IMG/VR virus record: IMGVR_UViG_3300027969_000001
Location: 32,001 to 96,000 of that record
DNA: 64,000 nucleotides
Strand: one strand, 5' to 3'
Source: a virus
How positions within the stretch are numbered: the first letter of the stretch is position 1; every line of letters starts with the position of its first letter. Shown one piece after another: positions 3,087-63,365 of this stretch. A program made the translations under genes and the position numbers. The notes under the pieces are model-generated. The model ran no database searches. It saw only the letters and a list, made by a program, of their open reading frames with translations, and was not told where the DNA came from.

Positions 3087-3718
3087 CAACAATAATTGGC
3101 ATACAGGGTGATGGCTTTTGTATAGCAACAACTGATTCTCGCATCTCAGAGCTTGAGGGCGGGTCTAATTTGATTTCGCAATTTGTCAGTCTAAAAGAGA
3201 CGAATACGAAAATAGCCTTAAATGGTCGCTACTTGTTGGGCGCGGCAGGGGATTTGCGCGCCATAAACATACTGCATCACGCTTTCCAGCCTCCGCCGGC
3301 ACCGCCAACACTTAAAGGCAAGAAGCTCGACCACTTCGTTACAGTTAAATTTATCCCAGCTTTAAGAGAAGTATTCGAGTCTTCCGGATACGCAATGCCT
3401 GATAAAGATGAAAAGACTCACATGGCGGAGCATGCCTCCACTGTATTCATGGCCATAAACGGCACTATCTATATCATTGATGGAGATTACTCCTGGATAT
3501 CTGACTCCTCTGGCTTGTTTGCCATAGGGAGCGGAGCCCAATACGCACTCGGTTCTCTCTATACACAGATGCCAAAAGGCAAACTAACCCTGCCAATGGC
3601 AAAGAAAATAGCAATGCGCGCAATCAATGTGGCCGCAAAGTTTGACCCATATACGGGAGCGCCGTACCACGCCTTCGTACAGGGAGCCGAAAAACCCCCT
3701 GCACCTAAGTCTCAATAG
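3083..3718 (+). CDS. Ntn-hydrolase, proteasome-beta/HslV-like threonine protease
   Basis: N-terminal MTT, DSR, GAAGD, AIGSGA, D-x-Y-T-G motifs. Confidence 0.8.
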   Translation: MTTIIGIQGDGFCIATTDSRISELEGGSNLISQFVSLKETNTKIALNGRYLLGAAGDLRAINILHHAFQPPPAPPTLKGKKLDHFVTVKFIPALREVFESSGYAMPDKDEKTHMAEHASTVFMAINGTIYIIDGDYSWISDSSGLFAIGSGAQYALGSLYTQMPKGKLTLPMAKKIAMRAINVAAKFDPYTGAPYHAFVQGAEKPPAPKSQ

Positions 3719-4161: not shown

Positions 4162-4512
4162 GTGGAATCAGACAACAAAAAGACCCAACAAAAATTACCC
4201 AATAAAAATACCTTACCTGTAGAAAGTCTAGCTATACCTAAAAAAGCTTGGTTTGGAATGGCAGCCTGTAAAGGAAAGACCGAACTAATGTTCCCCAAAC
4301 AACATAAGGACATTACTTATATCGCTCAGGCGAGAGCATTGTGCAGAACATGCCCAGTGATAGATAACTGTTTGGAGTACGCACTAGAGTTCCCGCCAGC
4401 TGATATGCACGGAGTATGGGCAGGACTCACATCAAGACAACTAGCCGCAGAACAAAGAAGGCGCAAGATAAAACCAATACGCCCAACACTCGCACAAATG
4501 TGGGGTAACTAA
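4162..4512 (+). CDS. whiB: WhiB-family Fe-S transcription regulator
   Basis: AAC...C-x2-C-P-x4-C...GVWAG. Confidence 0.9.
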   Translation: MESDNKKTQQKLPNKNTLPVESLAIPKKAWFGMAACKGKTELMFPKQHKDITYIAQARALCRTCPVIDNCLEYALEFPPADMHGVWAGLTSRQLAAEQRRRKIKPIRPTLAQMWGN

Positions 4513-6767: not shown

Positions 6768-6885
6768 GGCCGGGGCTTCTACGGGAGGGTTTACCCCTTT
6801 CGACCTCCTATGGAAGTAGGACCCTGGAGTTGAGTTTTCTGGAACGTTGGTAGGTGGCTTACCGGAAAACTCCTCCGGGGTTTCC
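6768..6885 (+). ncRNA. Candidate two-hairpin sRNA with loops antisense to accessory-gene leaders
   Basis: Intergenic; stems 6775-6817 and 6821-6881 use G-U pairs only on the + strand; TATGCT -10 at 6754. Confidence 0.55.
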
Positions 6886-9846: not shown

Positions 9847-10227
9847 GTGTTCATGGATAACCTCACAAAATTCAATATTTATACAGGAGCTCTCGAGCAG
9901 TACATTTCCCGAGAAGGGGATTCTCGAATTCCGGCAATTCATATCGAAAAATTTCAAGAAAATGATATTTCCCTAGGGGCATGGTCCGGATATATTCGTC
10001 AGAGATATCGTAAAAATCAACTCCATCCAGAACGTGTTTCAAAAATGCAAGAAATTGCTGGCTGGCAGTGGGGTCCATTTCAGCCGGGTCCTGCGACGGA
10101 CATCAAAAGAAATGAAATTATTAAAGAAATGCGTATCGAGGGAAAGTCCCTTCGGGAAATCGCCGATGAGTTTGATTTGTCTCGGCAGCGGGTTCATCAA
10201 ATAGTTAAGAAACTTAAAATCGATTAA
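9847..10227 (+). CDS. Helicase-associated (HA) domain plus sigma70 region-4-like HTH protein
   Basis: LGAWSGYIRQRYRKNQL..ER...GWQW (HA); SLREIADEFDLSRQRVHQI (HTH). Confidence 0.75.
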   Translation: MFMDNLTKFNIYTGALEQYISREGDSRIPAIHIEKFQENDISLGAWSGYIRQRYRKNQLHPERVSKMQEIAGWQWGPFQPGPATDIKRNEIIKEMRIEGKSLREIADEFDLSRQRVHQIVKKLKID

Positions 10228-10909: not shown

Positions 10910-10981
10910 AAAAAATCCTTTTTTTGATTAGTAATAGATAAGTGTCAGATGTGGTACATGAATAGATAAGTGAAACGCCAA

Positions 10982-11037
10982 TGTCTCTCGGCAATGTGTA
11001 GTACCCACCAAAGGAGAAACACGATTACCGAGAGACA
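10982..11037 (-). ncRNA. Hairpin with anti-Shine-Dalgarno loop (UUUCUCCUUUGGUGGGUA) in the 3' region of the MoxR/VWA operon
   Basis: 14-bp stem with a G-U pair on the minus strand. Confidence 0.4.
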
Positions 11038-11047
11038 CTAGCACCAG

Positions 11048-11085
11048 TGCCTCTGTTGGGAACAACCAAGAAACCAACAGAGGCA
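11048..11085 (-). terminator. Hairpin just downstream of the VWA gene
   Basis: TGCCTCTGTTGG/CCAACAGAGGCA inverted repeat. Confidence 0.5.
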
Positions 11086-20408: not shown

Positions 20409-20828
20409 CTACTTTATGTAGCGAGCGACCCCTGCGTAGGTGTTGGTGCTTACTGTTTCCTCGTCTGTCATACGAAGGATACTGATAGCGTTCTCCAACT
20501 CCTCAATCTCTGATTTGATAGCCCAATGAACGAAGTCTTGTTCAGGCTCTTTTGGTGCTTTCACCGAAGCAGGAAACTCAATCGTGAGTTCGTACTTGTT
20601 GCCTTCCTCGTTACGGTAGTTGTTGTACTTGCTGACATTTGTGACCTTGCCCTTGCCTGAACGAAACAACTCCGAAAGACTGTCTTGGAAGTCTTTGACT
20701 TCTTTTTCGTATTCTTTTTTTGCTTTTTCGTAATCGGACATTTGCTTATTGCGAAAGTCAAGAGCCTTCTGTAATGCGTCAATCACTTTCTTAGTGCTGA
20801 CCTTTACATTTATGGATTTCTGTTTCAT
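20409..20828 (-). CDS. Hypothetical coiled-coil protein (start at MKQKS)
   Basis: AGGAG RBS; promoter at 20872. Confidence 0.7.
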   Translation of the reverse strand: MKQKSINVKVSTKKVIDALQKALDFRNKQMSDYEKAKKEYEKEVKDFQDSLSELFRSGKGKVTNVSKYNNYRNEEGNKYELTIEFPASVKAPKEPEQDFVHWAIKSEIEELENAISILRMTDEETVSTNTYAGVARYIK

Positions 20829-21147
20829 TTGGTTTCTCCTGCCAGCCTTGTAGGTGGGTGCTGACTCGCATACCGTACCACTCAAGGTACAGACCTACAC
20901 GCCCACTTATCTATTACATTTTTATCTCGCCCCCCCGTCCCTCGCCATGTGTTCGCAAGAAAGCCCCGACCTAGTTCGTTATCAACGGGGCTCATTCCGA
21001 AACGAGAGAACAAGAGCGCACTTGGGGGTTGAGATAGAAAAGTTGAGTTCGGGGTTGCGTAACTTATCTATTTGGAATAATCAAAAAACCGTAACGCTCG
21101 CACAACCGTAATAGATAAGTCAGGTCACCTTGGTAATAGATAAGTCA

Positions 21148-21197: not shown

Positions 21198-21662
21198 TTA
21201 GCGCATGAAGTTGCGAATAGCGTCATTGAGACTGCCAGTTGCGCCACCTTCATCAGTAATCGTGTCATCAGGCTCGTCTTGGAAACGGAGAACGCTTACA
21301 ACATCTTCACGAGTAGCAACCACAACGAGACGAACACGACGCTTTTCAGGGTGCTGACTTGGTGGAGTGTCAAGACCAACTTCTGCGTCAAAGTCCTTGG
21401 GAAGTGGCGCAGCCCAACCCGTTGTAACTACTGCCGTGAACTCGTATGACTTAGCAACCTTACGGTCTGCCTTGTCCAGTAGGTCATAAACATCATCATG
21501 TGACGAGAGGTGAGTGAGTTTCGCTTCGTTGTTGGTGATAGTGACACCGTAGAGGCGAGATGAGGACAGTTGGAACTGGTCATCAGGATTAGTCGGGTGA
21601 CTGAGTAGGTGGTGGAGTTTGGCTTCTGCCAACTCTGCCGTAGCGAGTAATGAAAGTGTCAT
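21198..21662 (-). CDS. Hypothetical protein (start at MTLSL)
   Basis: GAAGGG RBS; promoter at 21697. Confidence 0.7.
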   Translation of the reverse strand: MTLSLLATAELAEAKLHHLLSHPTNPDDQFQLSSSRLYGVTITNNEAKLTHLSSHDDVYDLLDKADRKVAKSYEFTAVVTTGWAAPLPKDFDAEVGLDTPPSQHPEKRRVRLVVVATREDVVSVLRFQDEPDDTITDEGGATGSLNDAIRNFMR

Positions 21663-22101
21663 AGCGTTTCCCTTCGTGGTTTGTTGTGACAAGGACAGCG
21701 TACACGATTAGGTACAGAACTACAATGGCACTTATCTATTCAGAAAAAAGACTTCCACCACCGTCATTCACTAACAGGACAACCCACAACCCTTCTCGCT
21801 ATTTTTTGACTTTTTTATCACGACCCCCAAGCCCCTCGTTCGCCCTCGCCTTGGCGTGTTCGGAAAGAGCCCCGGGCATTTCGCCAACGGCGGGGCTCCA
21901 ATGGGAAAGGAAGCCGAGCCGAGTGAATTGGTTGGGTTGGGTGACTTATCTATTGCTGATACCGAGACAGCCGAGAGATAGAGCGAGCGTGTCACTCTCT
22001 GCCCTCGTGCCTATCCTCAATAGACAAGTGCCACGCCACAACGCCTGCCATGAGAGCAACACCGAGCAACGGTGAACAGAGGGCGAGTATCACGAGCGTT
22101 C

Positions 22102-26009: not shown

Positions 26010-26267
26010 TAGATAAGTCATCAACCACTCTGAGTGAAAGAAGAACTCGCTCAGAGTGATGACCAAGGAAGCCCCGGCTCGCTCGTTCCCAACGGGGCTC
26101 CCTTGCGCTTCGCTTGCTTCGGTGGTGGGGGTCGTGATAAAAAAGTCTGCTCCTCGTTGCGAGGGAGAAGCTCGGGTTATCTGTAATAGATAAGTACCCC
26201 TAGCAGTTCTGTACCTATTGGGTTACTATTGAGTGACCACATAACACTTTCCTGAAGGGGGAACTAA

Positions 26268-26681
26268 ATGTCAAAAATAGATTATGACGGAATACAACTT
26301 TCGTACGAGGCTCAAGTTATTGAGTCAGATAAAAAGTTGCTTGATGCTTTACTTGATGCCGTGAAAGATGAAGAACTTGCACCTTTCACATTCCACATGG
26401 AGTGGGTCATCTGTGATTACTGCCGTGGCAACGGTGGACACTCTCGCCGTTTCGGTGCAATGAGTTCAGAAGAGTTTGCAGAGTGGAGCGATGAGTCTCG
26501 TGAAGCGTACTTGCGTGGTGCTTACGATGACCGTTGTGAAGCGTGTGATGGAAGTGGAAAGGTCTATGAGATGAACGAAGGCGCATTGCCTGAAGAAGTT
26601 ATTGAGTTCATTGACAACTACCGTCAGTACGCATTTGATAGCGCATCTGAAAGTCGTGCTGAACGAATGGCAGGTTGCTGA
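26268..26681 (+). CDS. Protein with two CxxCxGxG Zn-finger repeats
   Basis: CDYCRGNG...CEACDGSG; promoter at 26203. Confidence 0.7.
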   Translation: MSKIDYDGIQLSYEAQVIESDKKLLDALLDAVKDEELAPFTFHMEWVICDYCRGNGGHSRRFGAMSSEEFAEWSDESREAYLRGAYDDRCEACDGSGKVYEMNEGALPEEVIEFIDNYRQYAFDSASESRAERMAGC

Positions 26682-33560: not shown

Positions 33561-33766
33561 TTGTTAGCCATCCAATCAACCACGTAACCAAAGGAATAAT
33601 CCTCAAGGGCTTCGTCAGTTCCGCATCCGGAGCAGATTTCTGTTTTGTTGTCCAAACGGGAGAGAGCCCCCGGATATGCGCCCGGATATATATTGTTCGG
33701 AATCTGTCCACCACAACGGGGACACTCGTACTTGTTTTCAGTTGCTGTTTCAGTATTTGTATTCAT
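33557..33766 (-). CDS. Small Zn-finger protein
   Basis: CPRCG...ALSR.DN.T.IC..CG..EA. Confidence 0.7.
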   Translation of the reverse strand: MNTNTETATENKYECPRCGGQIPNNIYPGAYPGALSRLDNKTEICSGCGTDEALEDYSFGYVVDWMANK

Positions 33767-33775
33767 TAGTTTCTC

Positions 33776-34321
33776 CTAACGTAGGGATGAGTCAAGGTTG
33801 TAGTAATCATCAGATAGCCATGAGCGGAAAGATTTAATGTCTTTCTTTTTTACTAACACGGCTATTCCTGTTGAGAATACGTTTGATGTTGGGTCGGCCA
33901 CTATAGCGACCGGGCATGGTGAATAGATTTCCCCTGCAAGCATAGCGTCTGCCCATTCATTAAAGTTCGCTTTGCGTTCACCGATTGGGTCGCCTCCCCA
34001 ATTCGCTGTAGTCCACCCAGTGAGTACATTGTCCCACCCTTCGATTGTGGTGTCGTAGTGACCACGCCATCCATCGCTCGATACCCATTCGCGTTTGATG
34101 TTGAGTTTGTGGGGGTCCACAGGGTTTCCGAATTCGTTAAAGATGTCAAGGTCGCCGACGTAGATTTTCACTACCTTATCCTCGATTAGGTTGATAGTTG
34201 ACGCTGACTGGCTGTCACTTTCCCAGCAACTCCAGCAGACATAGTCCTCCTTGACAGAGGCATAGCGACTGTCATCACCACCTTCAGGGTCTATTGGTTC
34301 CCTGCACTCTGCGCATACCAT
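33776..34321 (-). CDS. Hypothetical protein with N-terminal Zn finger
   Basis: Two CxxC motifs; GGAGGAG RBS. Confidence 0.65.
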   Translation of the reverse strand: MVCAECREPIDPEGGDDSRYASVKEDYVCWSCWESDSQSASTINLIEDKVVKIYVGDLDIFNEFGNPVDPHKLNIKREWVSSDGWRGHYDTTIEGWDNVLTGWTTANWGGDPIGERKANFNEWADAMLAGEIYSPCPVAIVADPTSNVFSTGIAVLVKKKDIKSFRSWLSDDYYNLDSSLR

Positions 34322-34400
34322 TGGTTTCTCCTCCTTGGCTTAATGACTGAATGATACCCATAGGTGCACATTTACGCAAACGCAGTGTAGGATAAATTAT

Positions 34401-34470
34401 GGCTAGTGGGACATGTGCTTCCGTTTCTCCTTTCGGTACCCCCTTCACGTGCATGTCTCGCTAGCCTTTT
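34401..34470 (+). ncRNA. Candidate sRNA: 18-bp stem, 30-nt pyrimidine-rich loop of anti-RBS motifs, U-tail
   Basis: Four G-U pairs on the + strand; TAGGAT -10 at 34388. Confidence 0.55.
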
Positions 34471-34482
34471 ATCTTGTAAGGG

Positions 34483-36417
34483 GTGAGGGCTCACAGTATG
34501 CGACTTTATTTAGACAACGACGAGATAGTTCTTGACTTTCCGTTCGATAAAGAGCAAGTGAATGAACTCAAAGCAATCTCCGGTGCTCGCTGGGACAAGC
34601 TTACGAAATTGTGGCGACTACCTATCACCTCTGTAACCGAAGGAAGAGACTTCGCACTCAAGCACGGGTTTGATGTAACCGTTGATGTAATGAAGTTCAC
34701 TGTTCCTCAAGACAAGAAGCCATCTGCTGCTCGTGTATGGATAAACGCCGGCAGTATCAGTATTCGTTACCCGTACGAGCGCGTGGCCATTAAAGCAATC
34801 AAGCAAATACCCGCAGTGTCTTGGGATGGGGAACAACGAGCGTGGACTGCACCCATGTCATCAGTCAAGAACGTAATTGCGTGGGCTGGAATGTTTAACG
34901 TTACGGTTGATAACGAAATCATGGTCGAAGCAACCCATGTAGAAGAAAAGACTAATCAACTCATCGAAGCATCTCGCTCTACTGATGCAGTCATAGCAAT
35001 AGATAAGTTGCAGGGTGATTTGCTTCCGTATCAAAGAGCCGGTGTGCAGTATGCAGCCAACGCTCGTAGAACATTCATCGCAGACGAGATGGGTCTTGGA
35101 AAGACAATTCAGGCAATATGCACTGTTGAGTACGTAATGGATTCGTATCCGGTAGTAGTTGTATGCCCACCGAGCCTTGTACTTAACTGGGCTAAGGAGT
35201 GGAATAAGTGGTTACCCGAGAGACGAGTAACTACCGTAACGAATAGGAAAGTGTTTCCAGATGAAGAAACATATGACGTTGTCATCGTTGGTTACAGCAA
35301 CATCCCTCACTGGGAGAAGAGGCTCACCGGACATCGCTCGTACATTTTCGACGAGAGTCACTATTGTAAGACGCCTACTGCACAACGAACCAAGGCAGCA
35401 GTCAAGATAGCCCGTAGTGCTCCGAAGGAAGGTCTTGTTCTCTGTCTTACCGGAACACCCGTGACCAACCGGCCAAACGAATACGCTTCACAACTCGAGA
35501 TACTCGGAAGACTCAAAGAGTTCGGTGGGTTGTGGGGTTTCTACCGGCGTTATTGTGCTGCGTATCAAGACTCGTTTGGTCAATGGAACATCAGTGGGAA
35601 CTCTCACTTAGATGAACTCAACGACAGACTACGTGGAGCGTGTTACATACGCCGAACAAAAGACCAAGTTCTTTCCGAGTTGCCACCCGTAGTCCATAGC
35701 CGGCTTGTCGTCGAAGGAAGCTCGGCCGGAATGAAGGAGTATGTCAAGGCAGAAAAGGACATCTTGTTCTACATCGCTGAACGCGCACGGCAACTTGCTA
35801 TAGAACGAGGCGAGCCGTCTCACAAAGCAGCGATGGCTGCAATGATTAGAGCCGAAGCCAATGAACACCTCGTTCGGTTGTCCATACTTAGAAGACTTGC
35901 TGCCAAAGCGAAGATGGATTCCGTACACGAATGGGTTGATGCGCACCTAGAGGACGGCAAGAAGGTAGTGATTGCTGCTCACCACAGAGAGATAGTCGAC
36001 GAGTTGTCTAATAAGTACGGCAATCTACGTATCCAAGGAGGGATGTCCGTAGAGGAAGTCGAACTAAACAAGAAGAAGTTCCAAGAGTTAGGCGTCGACA
36101 AGGCACCCGTAATCGTTTTGTCGATGCAGGCAGCAAAGACCGGACACACGTTGACTGCTTCGGAGAACTGTCTGTTCGTGGAACTCCCGTGGACACCCGC
36201 GGACGTAGACCAAACTTACAGCAGATTGCACAGACTGGGACAAAAGGGCAGCGTGACGGCGACTTATCTATTAGCAGCCGGAACAATCGATGAAGATATT
36301 TACGATTTAATAGATAAAAAGCGTTCCGTAGTCGATGCAGCCGTAGAAGGTGGCGAAGTATCTAGCGTAAATGGCACCGTACAGATGATTATGGGCCTAT
36401 TTGATAGGGCTCGCTAG
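34483..36417 (+). CDS. SNF2-family helicase (SMARCAL1/HARP-like annealing helicase architecture)
   Basis: DEMGLGKT, DESH, LTGTP, QxxxRxxRxGQ; two N-terminal HARP-like repeats; start may be 34498. Confidence 0.9.
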   Translation: MRAHSMRLYLDNDEIVLDFPFDKEQVNELKAISGARWDKLTKLWRLPITSVTEGRDFALKHGFDVTVDVMKFTVPQDKKPSAARVWINAGSISIRYPYERVAIKAIKQIPAVSWDGEQRAWTAPMSSVKNVIAWAGMFNVTVDNEIMVEATHVEEKTNQLIEASRSTDAVIAIDKLQGDLLPYQRAGVQYAANARRTFIADEMGLGKTIQAICTVEYVMDSYPVVVVCPPSLVLNWAKEWNKWLPERRVTTVTNRKVFPDEETYDVVIVGYSNIPHWEKRLTGHRSYIFDESHYCKTPTAQRTKAAVKIARSAPKEGLVLCLTGTPVTNRPNEYASQLEILGRLKEFGGLWGFYRRYCAAYQDSFGQWNISGNSHLDELNDRLRGACYIRRTKDQVLSELPPVVHSRLVVEGSSAGMKEYVKAEKDILFYIAERARQLAIERGEPSHKAAMAAMIRAEANEHLVRLSILRRLAAKAKMDSVHEWVDAHLEDGKKVVIAAHHREIVDELSNKYGNLRIQGGMSVEEVELNKKKFQELGVDKAPVIVLSMQAAKTGHTLTASENCLFVELPWTPADVDQTYSRLHRLGQKGSVTATYLLAAGTIDEDIYDLIDKKRSVVDAAVEGGEVSSVNGTVQMIMGLFDRAR

Positions 36418-63035: not shown

Positions 63036-63365
63036 TTAGTTTGGCAAAAGAATGTTGATTGGTTCTCGCGGTACTACGAAAATATTTAAGCGCCGACGCA
63101 TTGTTTGTCTTTCACGTTCAGTCATCCCGCCCCATATCCCGAAGTGCTCATGATACAGGCCGTATGAAAGACATTCTTCCTTAACGTGACAGTCGGAACA
63201 TATTTGTAAAGCAATACCGGTATTCATTCTGGCTTTTCTGTAGTTATCAGAAAAATTTCCTGGCTGAGTTTTATCAGCGTGTGGATACCAGATGTTTGGG
63301 TTAAGACCTTTGCAATCACCATCTCTTGGTGGTGTGTCAACTCTTTGCATCTTTTCCCCGTTCAA
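63036..63365 (-). CDS. whiB: WhiB-family regulator
   Basis: C...CSDC....C...GIWGG...ER. Confidence 0.9.
   Translation of the reverse strand: MNGEKMQRVDTPPRDGDCKGLNPNIWYPHADKTQPGNFSDNYRKARMNTGIALQICSDCHVKEECLSYGLYHEHFGIWGGMTERERQTMRRRLNIFVVPREPINILLPN

Follow-up and report, generated by a model that had tools for sequence, protein, structure and literature searches.

The locus described here raises the question of whether a long RNA hairpin placed just ahead of a helicase gene in a viral genome is a part of the message of that gene, or a small regulatory RNA in its own right that acts on other messages of the same virus. The window, that is, the whole stretch of 64,000 nucleotides that was analysed, comprises bases 32001-96000 of a 158,714-bp IMG/VR virus record (G000 in what follows) with direct terminal repeats. 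The hairpin (hairpin A, 34401-34466, + strand) sits in a divergent intergenic region, with a minus-strand gene starting at 34321 on its left and a SNF2-family helicase gene on its right (34483-36417, + strand; Pfam SNF2-rel_dom, 8.5e-26, and Helicase_C). The initial annotation of this locus had proposed a multi-target RNA directed against Shine-Dalgarno (SD) sequences and had named attenuation of the SNF2 gene as an alternative.

The host is most likely a freshwater actinobacterium, since the window encodes two WhiB-like proteins (4249-4440, + strand, and 63099-63323, - strand; Pfam PF02467, 55 and 50 bits), the closest cultured homologues of the SNF2 helicase occur in Arthrobacter phages (31-33% identity), and freshwater metagenomes are the source of the related contigs. 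WhiB proteins are a marker of actinobacteria and their phages. The hairpin locus gave no nucleotide match in cultured phage genomes (blastn), and the relatives were therefore taken from IMG/VR and from metagenomes, where a search with the SNF2 protein collected 10 viral and 80 metagenomic loci. As a separate observation on the genome, some 66 copies of the 11-mer AATAGATAAGT, counted with up to one mismatch, are spread between window positions 3714 and 40274 (35.7-72 kb of the genome); their strand tracks the direction of the genes, and a TTGTAG...TACGCT-type promoter or GGAGCCCCG/CGGGGCTCC palindromes often come after them. The equivalent places of a second complete genome, G001, hold a different, TAGGTAAGT-like word.

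According to the sequence and the RNA fold, hairpin A is composed of a 5′ arm (34401-34418), at whose base the transcript is predicted to start, a loop of 30 nt (34419-34448) and a 3′ arm (34449-34466), all on the + strand. The stem comprises 18 uninterrupted pairs, four of which are G-U pairs that form on the + strand only and become A-C mismatches on the other; this stem, the TTTT tail that follows it and a TAGGAT hexamer upstream had all been pointed out in the initial annotation and were found in place. In the minimum free energy fold, the loop contains a 3-bp inner helix (CCG/CGG) topped by an apical loop of 10 nt, and a 12-nt internal loop remains on the 3′ side. The loop presents two pyrimidine-rich words: the candidate apical anti-RBS motif GTTTCTCCTTT (34423-34433, + strand), complementary to the commonest leader word of the genome, AGGAGAA(A), and a second, C-rich motif, CCCCCTTCA (34439-34447, + strand), whose core CCCCTTC is complementary to a GAAGGGG class of leaders. 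The + strand RNA folds with -31 kcal/mol (z = -6.0; none of 200 shuffles was equally stable) and the - strand RNA with -21.4 kcal/mol (z = -2.8). When the whole genome of 158.7 kb was scanned for uninterrupted stems enclosing loops of 10-50 nt, the two longest were those of hairpin A (18 bp) and of a second hairpin on the minus strand, hairpin B (10974-11045, 22 bp).

No Rfam family accounts for this structure. A scan of the window at the Rfam gathering thresholds (6C, C4, RsaE and 4227 other families) returned two tRNAs only, and a permissive scan of positions 34300-34520 gave a single hairpin-like match below threshold, a spurious one, to the model of a microRNA precursor. Several coding explanations were also considered and rejected. 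The open reading frames that overlap the hairpin on the + strand (34413-34535) and on the - strand (34284-34454) are not kept in relatives; and if the loop is read on the opposite strand as a ribosome-binding site (RBS), the frame after it has three codons in the window, and only short, non-conserved frames follow it in L002, L004 and L006.

The relatives provide evidence that the hairpin is a conserved RNA. A long hairpin 17-32 nt before the SNF2 start was found in four lineages (that of the window; L002, L003, L027, L028 and L029; L004-L009 and L036; L022-L026), whose stem sequences are unrelated to one another while pairing is kept. In an alignment of nine sequences (A4), 12 of 17 pairs had changed on both sides and 96% of the cells were paired; shuffles gave 82%, and the figure fell to 27-45% on sliding the partners. 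These covariation values were reached by none of 500 shuffles. The sense strand folds better in 11 of the 12 related hairpins examined, the exception being the B copy of the genome G002, which has no G-U pair and whose strands are about equal (-28.4 vs -29.1). Pooling the predicted folds of the 12 hairpins, 39 of 265 pairs are G-U, and the outer stems are uninterrupted. Between the close relatives L003 and L027 the hairpin is identical at 65 of 65 positions, the first 300 nt of SNF2 at 234 of 300 and the upstream flank at 59 of 80; the hairpin is thus better conserved than the adjacent coding sequence, which points to purifying selection. On this well-supported evidence, the A element represents a real, conserved and strand-specific family of RNA hairpins not yet in Rfam.

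A CTCCTTT core is common to hairpins A and B and to those of L002, L003, L029, L022 and L023, and in all of these except B it extends to CTCCTTTCGGTA. This pyrimidine word characterizes three of the lineages, and the fourth, that of L004 and L006, carries TCCCTTCG in its place. Loops are 27-30 nt long in the window, L002/L003 and L029, and about 21-25 nt in L022/L023; in L004/L006 a 40-nt region folds into an inner stem with an apical loop of 11-12 nt. The second motif, CCCCCTTCA, is specific to G000 and is not conserved in relatives. It is important to note that many SNF2 relatives lack any hairpin, most of them having a divergent intergenic spacer of about 55 nt. In L020 and L021 the TAGGAT promoter is retained and the hairpin, about 60-110 nt upstream of SNF2, has only 7 bp in its stem and a U-rich loop of 9 nt, as if the A element had decayed or diverged there.

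A promoter signal accompanies the hairpin. The -10 hexamer TAGGAT (34388-34393, + strand) is separated from the first paired base by exactly 7 nt, and a weak -35-like sequence, TGCACA (34365-34370, + strand), lies 17 nt before the hexamer. Relatives do not keep the -35, apart from the clade of L002, L003, L027 and L029, where TTG-type hexamers stand 18-19 nt upstream. On the other hand, a TANNNT hexamer precedes the stem in 10 of 10 distinct carriers, at 7 nt in the window, L002, L003, L027, L004, L006 and L036 (three clades), at 9 nt in L029 and at 10-11 nt in L022/L023, a fixed placement from which transcription is predicted to start where the stem begins. A scanner for the sigma-70 consensus called neither a promoter nor a terminator at the hairpin site, so that the promoter argument rests on this conservation across lineages. 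The hairpin RNA probably has, therefore, a promoter of its own, with the 5′ end at the structured RNA. The 3′ end is less uniform: the U4 tract directly after the stem (34467-34470, + strand) is a possible terminator tail, and U-rich tails are also seen in the L022/L023 and L002 clades; they are absent in the L004/L006 clade, and read-through into SNF2 is consequently possible. A loop of 30 nt is atypical for an intrinsic terminator, and the combination of compact GC-rich stem, 3-8-nt loop and conserved U tract that would define such a terminator or an attenuator was not found at this hairpin.

The relation of the hairpin to the helicase gene depends on how SNF2 is translated. Two starts are available in the window, a leaderless GTG at 34483 and an SD-led ATG at 34498, the former being in frame and five codons upstream of the latter. 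TATCTT (34470-34475, + strand), 7 nt before the GTG, is a candidate -10 of a separate SNF2 promoter, and of 33 distinct SNF2 relatives whose start is clear, 24, hairpin carriers included, have a TANNNT of their own placed 6-7 nt before the initiating ATG or GTG; the counts at other distances are 0-5. Such spacing is the hallmark of leaderless mRNAs, a frequent type of message in actinobacteria (PMC4633059, PMC6448022, PMC3160421). It implies a leaderless SNF2 message, and SNF2 is probably translated in this way across the phage family, with GTG 34483 as the possible true start in the window. In G000 as a whole, 6 nt is the most frequent distance from TANNNT to candidate start codons, with 17 cases where the background is about 6, which suggests that there are some 10-15 leaderless genes, for example those starting at 9853 (+ strand) and 33312 (- strand) of the window. 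The leaderless reading of SNF2 also helps the annotation of start sites in these phage genomes.

Since SNF2 seems self-sufficient and has relatives without a hairpin, the promoter and hairpin may be regarded as a module that was added to the gene, and hairpin A looks like an inserted small transcription unit and not like a leader of SNF2. In this sense, SNF2 would not depend on read-through from the upstream promoter: it has its own TANNNT, and its hairpin-less relatives keep only the ~55-nt spacer. The attenuation of SNF2 is weakened by the same observations. There are also features that fit a leadered message. In the window the SD-like GGGGTGAGGG precedes ATG 34498, and in L020 and L021 SNF2 has a canonical SD, so that its SD-led message may come from the upstream promoter there; a TATTCT hexamer located after the small hairpin could drive it instead. 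An SD before SNF2 is absent in L002, L003, L004 and L006. Pairing of the loop in cis with the SNF2 SD was rejected, because the match is only 6 bp in the window and these relatives have no SD to pair with.

The apical loop is complementary to AGGAGAAA, the commonest leader word in G000, and the 7-mer seen most often in leaders is AGGAGAA, which complements the apical loop word (14 of the 208 genes of a crude, SD-biased gene call, from which the gene starts used here were taken). The 9-mer complements that the initial annotation had listed before the genes at 20828, 33766, 34321, 16457 and 26268 are all present. One of them, AGGAGAAAC, has seven copies in the window against 0.7 expected and is found 2-3 nt ahead of the ATGs at 34321, 33766 and 20828. 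These three predicted target sites are on the minus strand: 34324-34332, before the divergent 181-aa gene (9 Watson-Crick and 2 G-U pairs), 33769-33777, before the 69-aa gene starting at 33766, and 20832-20840, before the gene starting at 20828. CCGAAAGGA precedes gene 16457, and TGAAGGGGG (26253-26261, + strand), a predicted target of the second motif, precedes the gene starting at 26268. Among the best matches of loop A are the two genes of the divergent neighbour operon and the gene at 20828. Complements of at least 8 nt to loop A were found in 14 of 208 leaders, where composition-matched shuffled loops gave a mean of 3.9 and 23 of 2000 reached 14; loop B had 13 such leaders, with a shuffle mean of 1.8 and 3 of 2000 reaching 13. 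Coding-sequence controls gave 0-1 matches (0 for loop A).

Most of this signal comes from a single loop word, TTTCTCCT; the two other 9-mers are single matches, neither of which is individually beyond chance. The core of CCCCCTTCA complements the GAAGGGG class that stands before six cassette genes. The idea of a design with concatenated motifs is consequently not supported, the apical CU motif being the only one conserved. The broader proposal of an anti-SD RNA has fared better, as it gains from the conserved strand-specific structure, from the conserved -10, from the complementarity of the loop to the commonest leaders and from the lineage-specific co-variation of loop and leader described below. 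The divergent 181-aa gene was considered as a conserved partner of the hairpin and rejected, since none of the other hairpin carriers has its homologue upstream of SNF2. As regards this Cys-rich gene (33776-34321, - strand), homologues with 44-47% identity lie downstream of SNF2 in L030, L031 and L033, so that gene order around SNF2 has been shuffled between lineages. A small hairpin elsewhere (21657-21691, + strand) with the loop TTTCCCTTCG was also discarded, being merely the complement of the leader of a minus-strand gene.

Any CU-rich loop will match SD-like leaders. Between three complete genomes, G000, G001 and G002, the leader words differ, and the A-type loops change with them. The loop UCUCUCCUUUCGGU of G001 matches two leader words that are specific to that genome, AGGAGAGA (four leaders in G001, none in G000 or G002) and ACCGAAAGG (five in G001, none in G000 or G002), and the 8-nt matches of this loop number nine in its own genome against two and none in the others. 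The loop UCCCUUCG of G002 matches CGAAGGGA, found in three leaders of G002, one of G000 and none of G001, while CCCCUUC, present in the G000 loop alone, matches GAAGGGG in six leaders of G000, one of G001 and none of G002. A pairwise case is given by the window, with loop UUUCUCCU and neighbour leader AGGAGAAA, as against L003, with loop UCUCUCCU and neighbour leader AGGAGAGA; the two differ by a double change from U:A to C:G. Genome specificity is clear only for the A loop of G001, being absent for that of G000 (14, 13 and 6 matches) and for the B-type loops. With these small numbers and crude gene starts, the co-variation of loops and leaders is suggestive support for pairing in trans.

Two other loci of the genome carry related loops. 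The 11-mer GTTTCTCCTTT has two exact copies in the genome, one in loop A and the other in loop B (11010-11020, - strand). Hairpin B (10974-11045, - strand) has a 22-bp stem different from that of A, whose G-U pairs form on the minus strand only, and a 28-nt loop; it lies between a 67-aa ORF and the stop codon of a gene for a VWA-like protein of 515 aa, itself preceded by an AAA_5 ATPase gene. Unlike A, it is intercistronic and no -10 precedes it, so it would be made by processing or would act within a longer RNA, and its loop matches the downstream RBS over only 6 A/U-rich bp. A second hairpin (11047-11083, - strand; 11-bp stem, 14-nt loop) stands directly upstream of B. In G001, G002 and G003 the homologous gene is likewise followed by two hairpins, again with a CUCCUUU loop but on different stems, and 11047-11083 has structural counterparts of different sequence there; the B locus is thus a two-hairpin module. 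These B-type copies of the relatives were missed by model R1 and were found by synteny. Each genome has only two long hairpins of the A/B kind. The recurrence of the identical loop word in B, a copy that sits in another operon and is itself kept in G001-G003, indicates that the A element is independent of the SNF2 context.

The third locus is an RNA at 6768-6885 (+ strand), whose first loop, GUUUACCCCUUUCGA, is a near variant of the A/B loop word. It shares with A the design of a stable stem presenting a GUUU-N-YCCUUU(C)G-type loop, and differs from it in having two hairpins, different stems and a TTGACG/TAAATT promoter of its own. Hairpins A and B and the 6768 RNA look like one family of loop designs, forming a set of three loci.

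Taken together, these observations are best explained by a hairpin A that acts in trans as a small anti-RBS RNA, comparable to, and not homologous with, 6C or c4; we give this reading about an even chance. Transcription from a sigma-A-like, host-type promoter (TAGGAT, 34388-34393) would start at the base of the 18-bp hairpin and terminate at or near the U tract, giving an RNA of presumably 70-80 nt. The stem would keep the pyrimidine-rich loop open, and its length may confer stability in a host phylum without Hfq. The loop words UUUCUCCUUU and, in G000, a second word CCCCCUUCA would then pair with the AGGAGAAA and GAAGGGG classes of leaders, so that the targets would include the two divergent neighbour genes and the accessory-gene cassettes. 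As the 10-nt apical loop would cover the region from SD to start codon in AGGAGAAA-type leaders, initiation would be blocked and translation lowered; leaderless messages would escape, and the adjacent SNF2 would probably be spared. In this scheme the transcript start, the termination point and all action in trans are inferred. A wider form of the scheme, rather doubtful, would join the hairpin RNAs at 34401, 10974 and 6768 into a phage-wide and chaperone-free code, in which loop "addresses" co-evolve with the lineage-specific leader words of swappable cassettes, SD-led genes are turned off together and leaderless genes, among them the replication helicase, are spared.

Four other explanations were weighed against action in trans, and in decreasing order of likelihood they are a leader in cis, a structural signal, a decoy of the 16S rRNA tail and a hairpin of single-stranded DNA. 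The leader in cis is unlikely, and still the strongest of the four. According to this view, the TAGGAT transcript runs into SNF2, the stem at its 5′ terminus attenuates the message or protects it from RNases that depend on the 5′ end, and the loop modulates its RBS. The constant position of the hairpin before the SNF2 start in carriers speaks for it, as do the -10 from which the RNA would begin with the stem, the same promoter before an SD-led SNF2 in L020/L021, the SD-like run before ATG 34498 and a U tract that is not conserved in the L004/L006 clade. However, the second TANNNT kept in carriers and in the 24 of 33 relatives makes SNF2 probably leaderless and self-sufficient, four of the carriers have no SD to sequester, and the match of loop to SD in the window is short. 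A simple 5′ stabilizer would leave the conservation of the loop unexplained, and copy B shows the same loop in an unrelated operon. This last copy, placed between cistrons and beside another conserved hairpin, would rather suit a processing or stability signal without base-pairing targets, either a site of the RNase III type or a terminator/insulator. The perfect stems of 18-22 bp are within the size range of RNase III substrates, as known from the processing sites of T7 and lambda, and several clades have U-rich tails. Nonetheless, a purely structural role does not require that the loop track lineage-specific leader words, nor that the loop word be conserved where the stems have turned over completely, and copy A has no upstream gene on the same strand to terminate or process; we consider this possibility distinctly unlikely.

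The remaining two explanations have still less probability. The CUCCUUU loop might mimic the 3′ tail of 16S rRNA and soak up a toxin of the MazF/RelE type or an RNA-binding protein, and it does contain CUCCUUUC, which we take to be part of the actinobacterial 16S tail. The complement of the loop presumably also resembles the apex of 16S helix 45, a likeness to which no weight is given here. Mycobacterial MazF and RelE toxins cleave the anti-SD region (PMC12274833, PMC12620021), and several copies of the loop per genome would be in keeping with a decoy. Against it, the L004/L006 clade carries UCCCUUC instead, the co-variation of loop and leader words favours pairing with mRNA, and a candidate protein partner is lacking, all of which make the decoy improbable. 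Finally, a hairpin of single-stranded DNA acting in replication or priming would fit the proximity of the SNF2 and DUF932 genes, the tolerance of G-T wobbles in single-stranded DNA and a DNA fold with z = -4.4. That fold is weak (-12.5 kcal/mol), the GC skew makes no turn at the site of hairpin A, copy B lies in a non-replication context, and neither the fixed distance of the conserved -10 nor the relation between loop and leaders would be explained; this reading is thus very improbable.

The regulatory RNAs of actinobacteriophages, and especially those of uncultured freshwater phages, are to our knowledge almost unknown. The A element adds a structured RNA family absent from Rfam that has a clear seed, namely loop and leader words that change together. 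If repression in trans is true, it would show a large lytic-type phage timing or silencing its accessory genes without protein repressors, and if the reading of the three hairpins is also true, the outcome would be a phage-wide regulatory code and not an antisense RNA with one target.

Among the known systems, a phage example is the c4 antisense RNA of P1 and P7, which pairs with a ribosome-binding region and blocks translation. Like c4, hairpin A would be a phage-encoded small RNA whose loop is predicted to pair with phage RBSs. Yet c4 is cut from a precursor and has as its target one operon, upstream of its own gene, whereas copy A seems to have a promoter of its own and an anti-RBS word of a generic kind, with matches in many leaders; the two are not homologous, and A has no Rfam match. 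In Firmicutes, sRNAs with UCCC or C-rich loops (RsaE/RoxS, RNAIII, RsaA) use C/U-rich hairpin loops to pair with several SDs (PMC5499838). These are chromosomal, of other architecture and without homology to A, so that the likeness is one of working principle only. A further parallel is 6C, an sRNA of Mycobacterium, Streptomyces and Corynebacterium whose unpaired C-rich loops bind mRNAs without a chaperone (PMC6486639). The targets of 6C are numerous, and its action needs neither Hfq nor ProQ. Like it, A is a hairpin RNA, probably of the same host phylum, with an unpaired loop as the predicted site of mRNA binding. Unlike 6C, whose loops bear runs of six C, A and B are built as one long stem of 18-22 bp with a large, CU-rich CUCCUUU loop, and A is encoded by a phage, lacks an Rfam match and has the leaders of that same phage as predicted targets. 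If this reading is true, the chaperone-free, C-rich-loop mechanism of actinobacterial 6C would be extended to phages.
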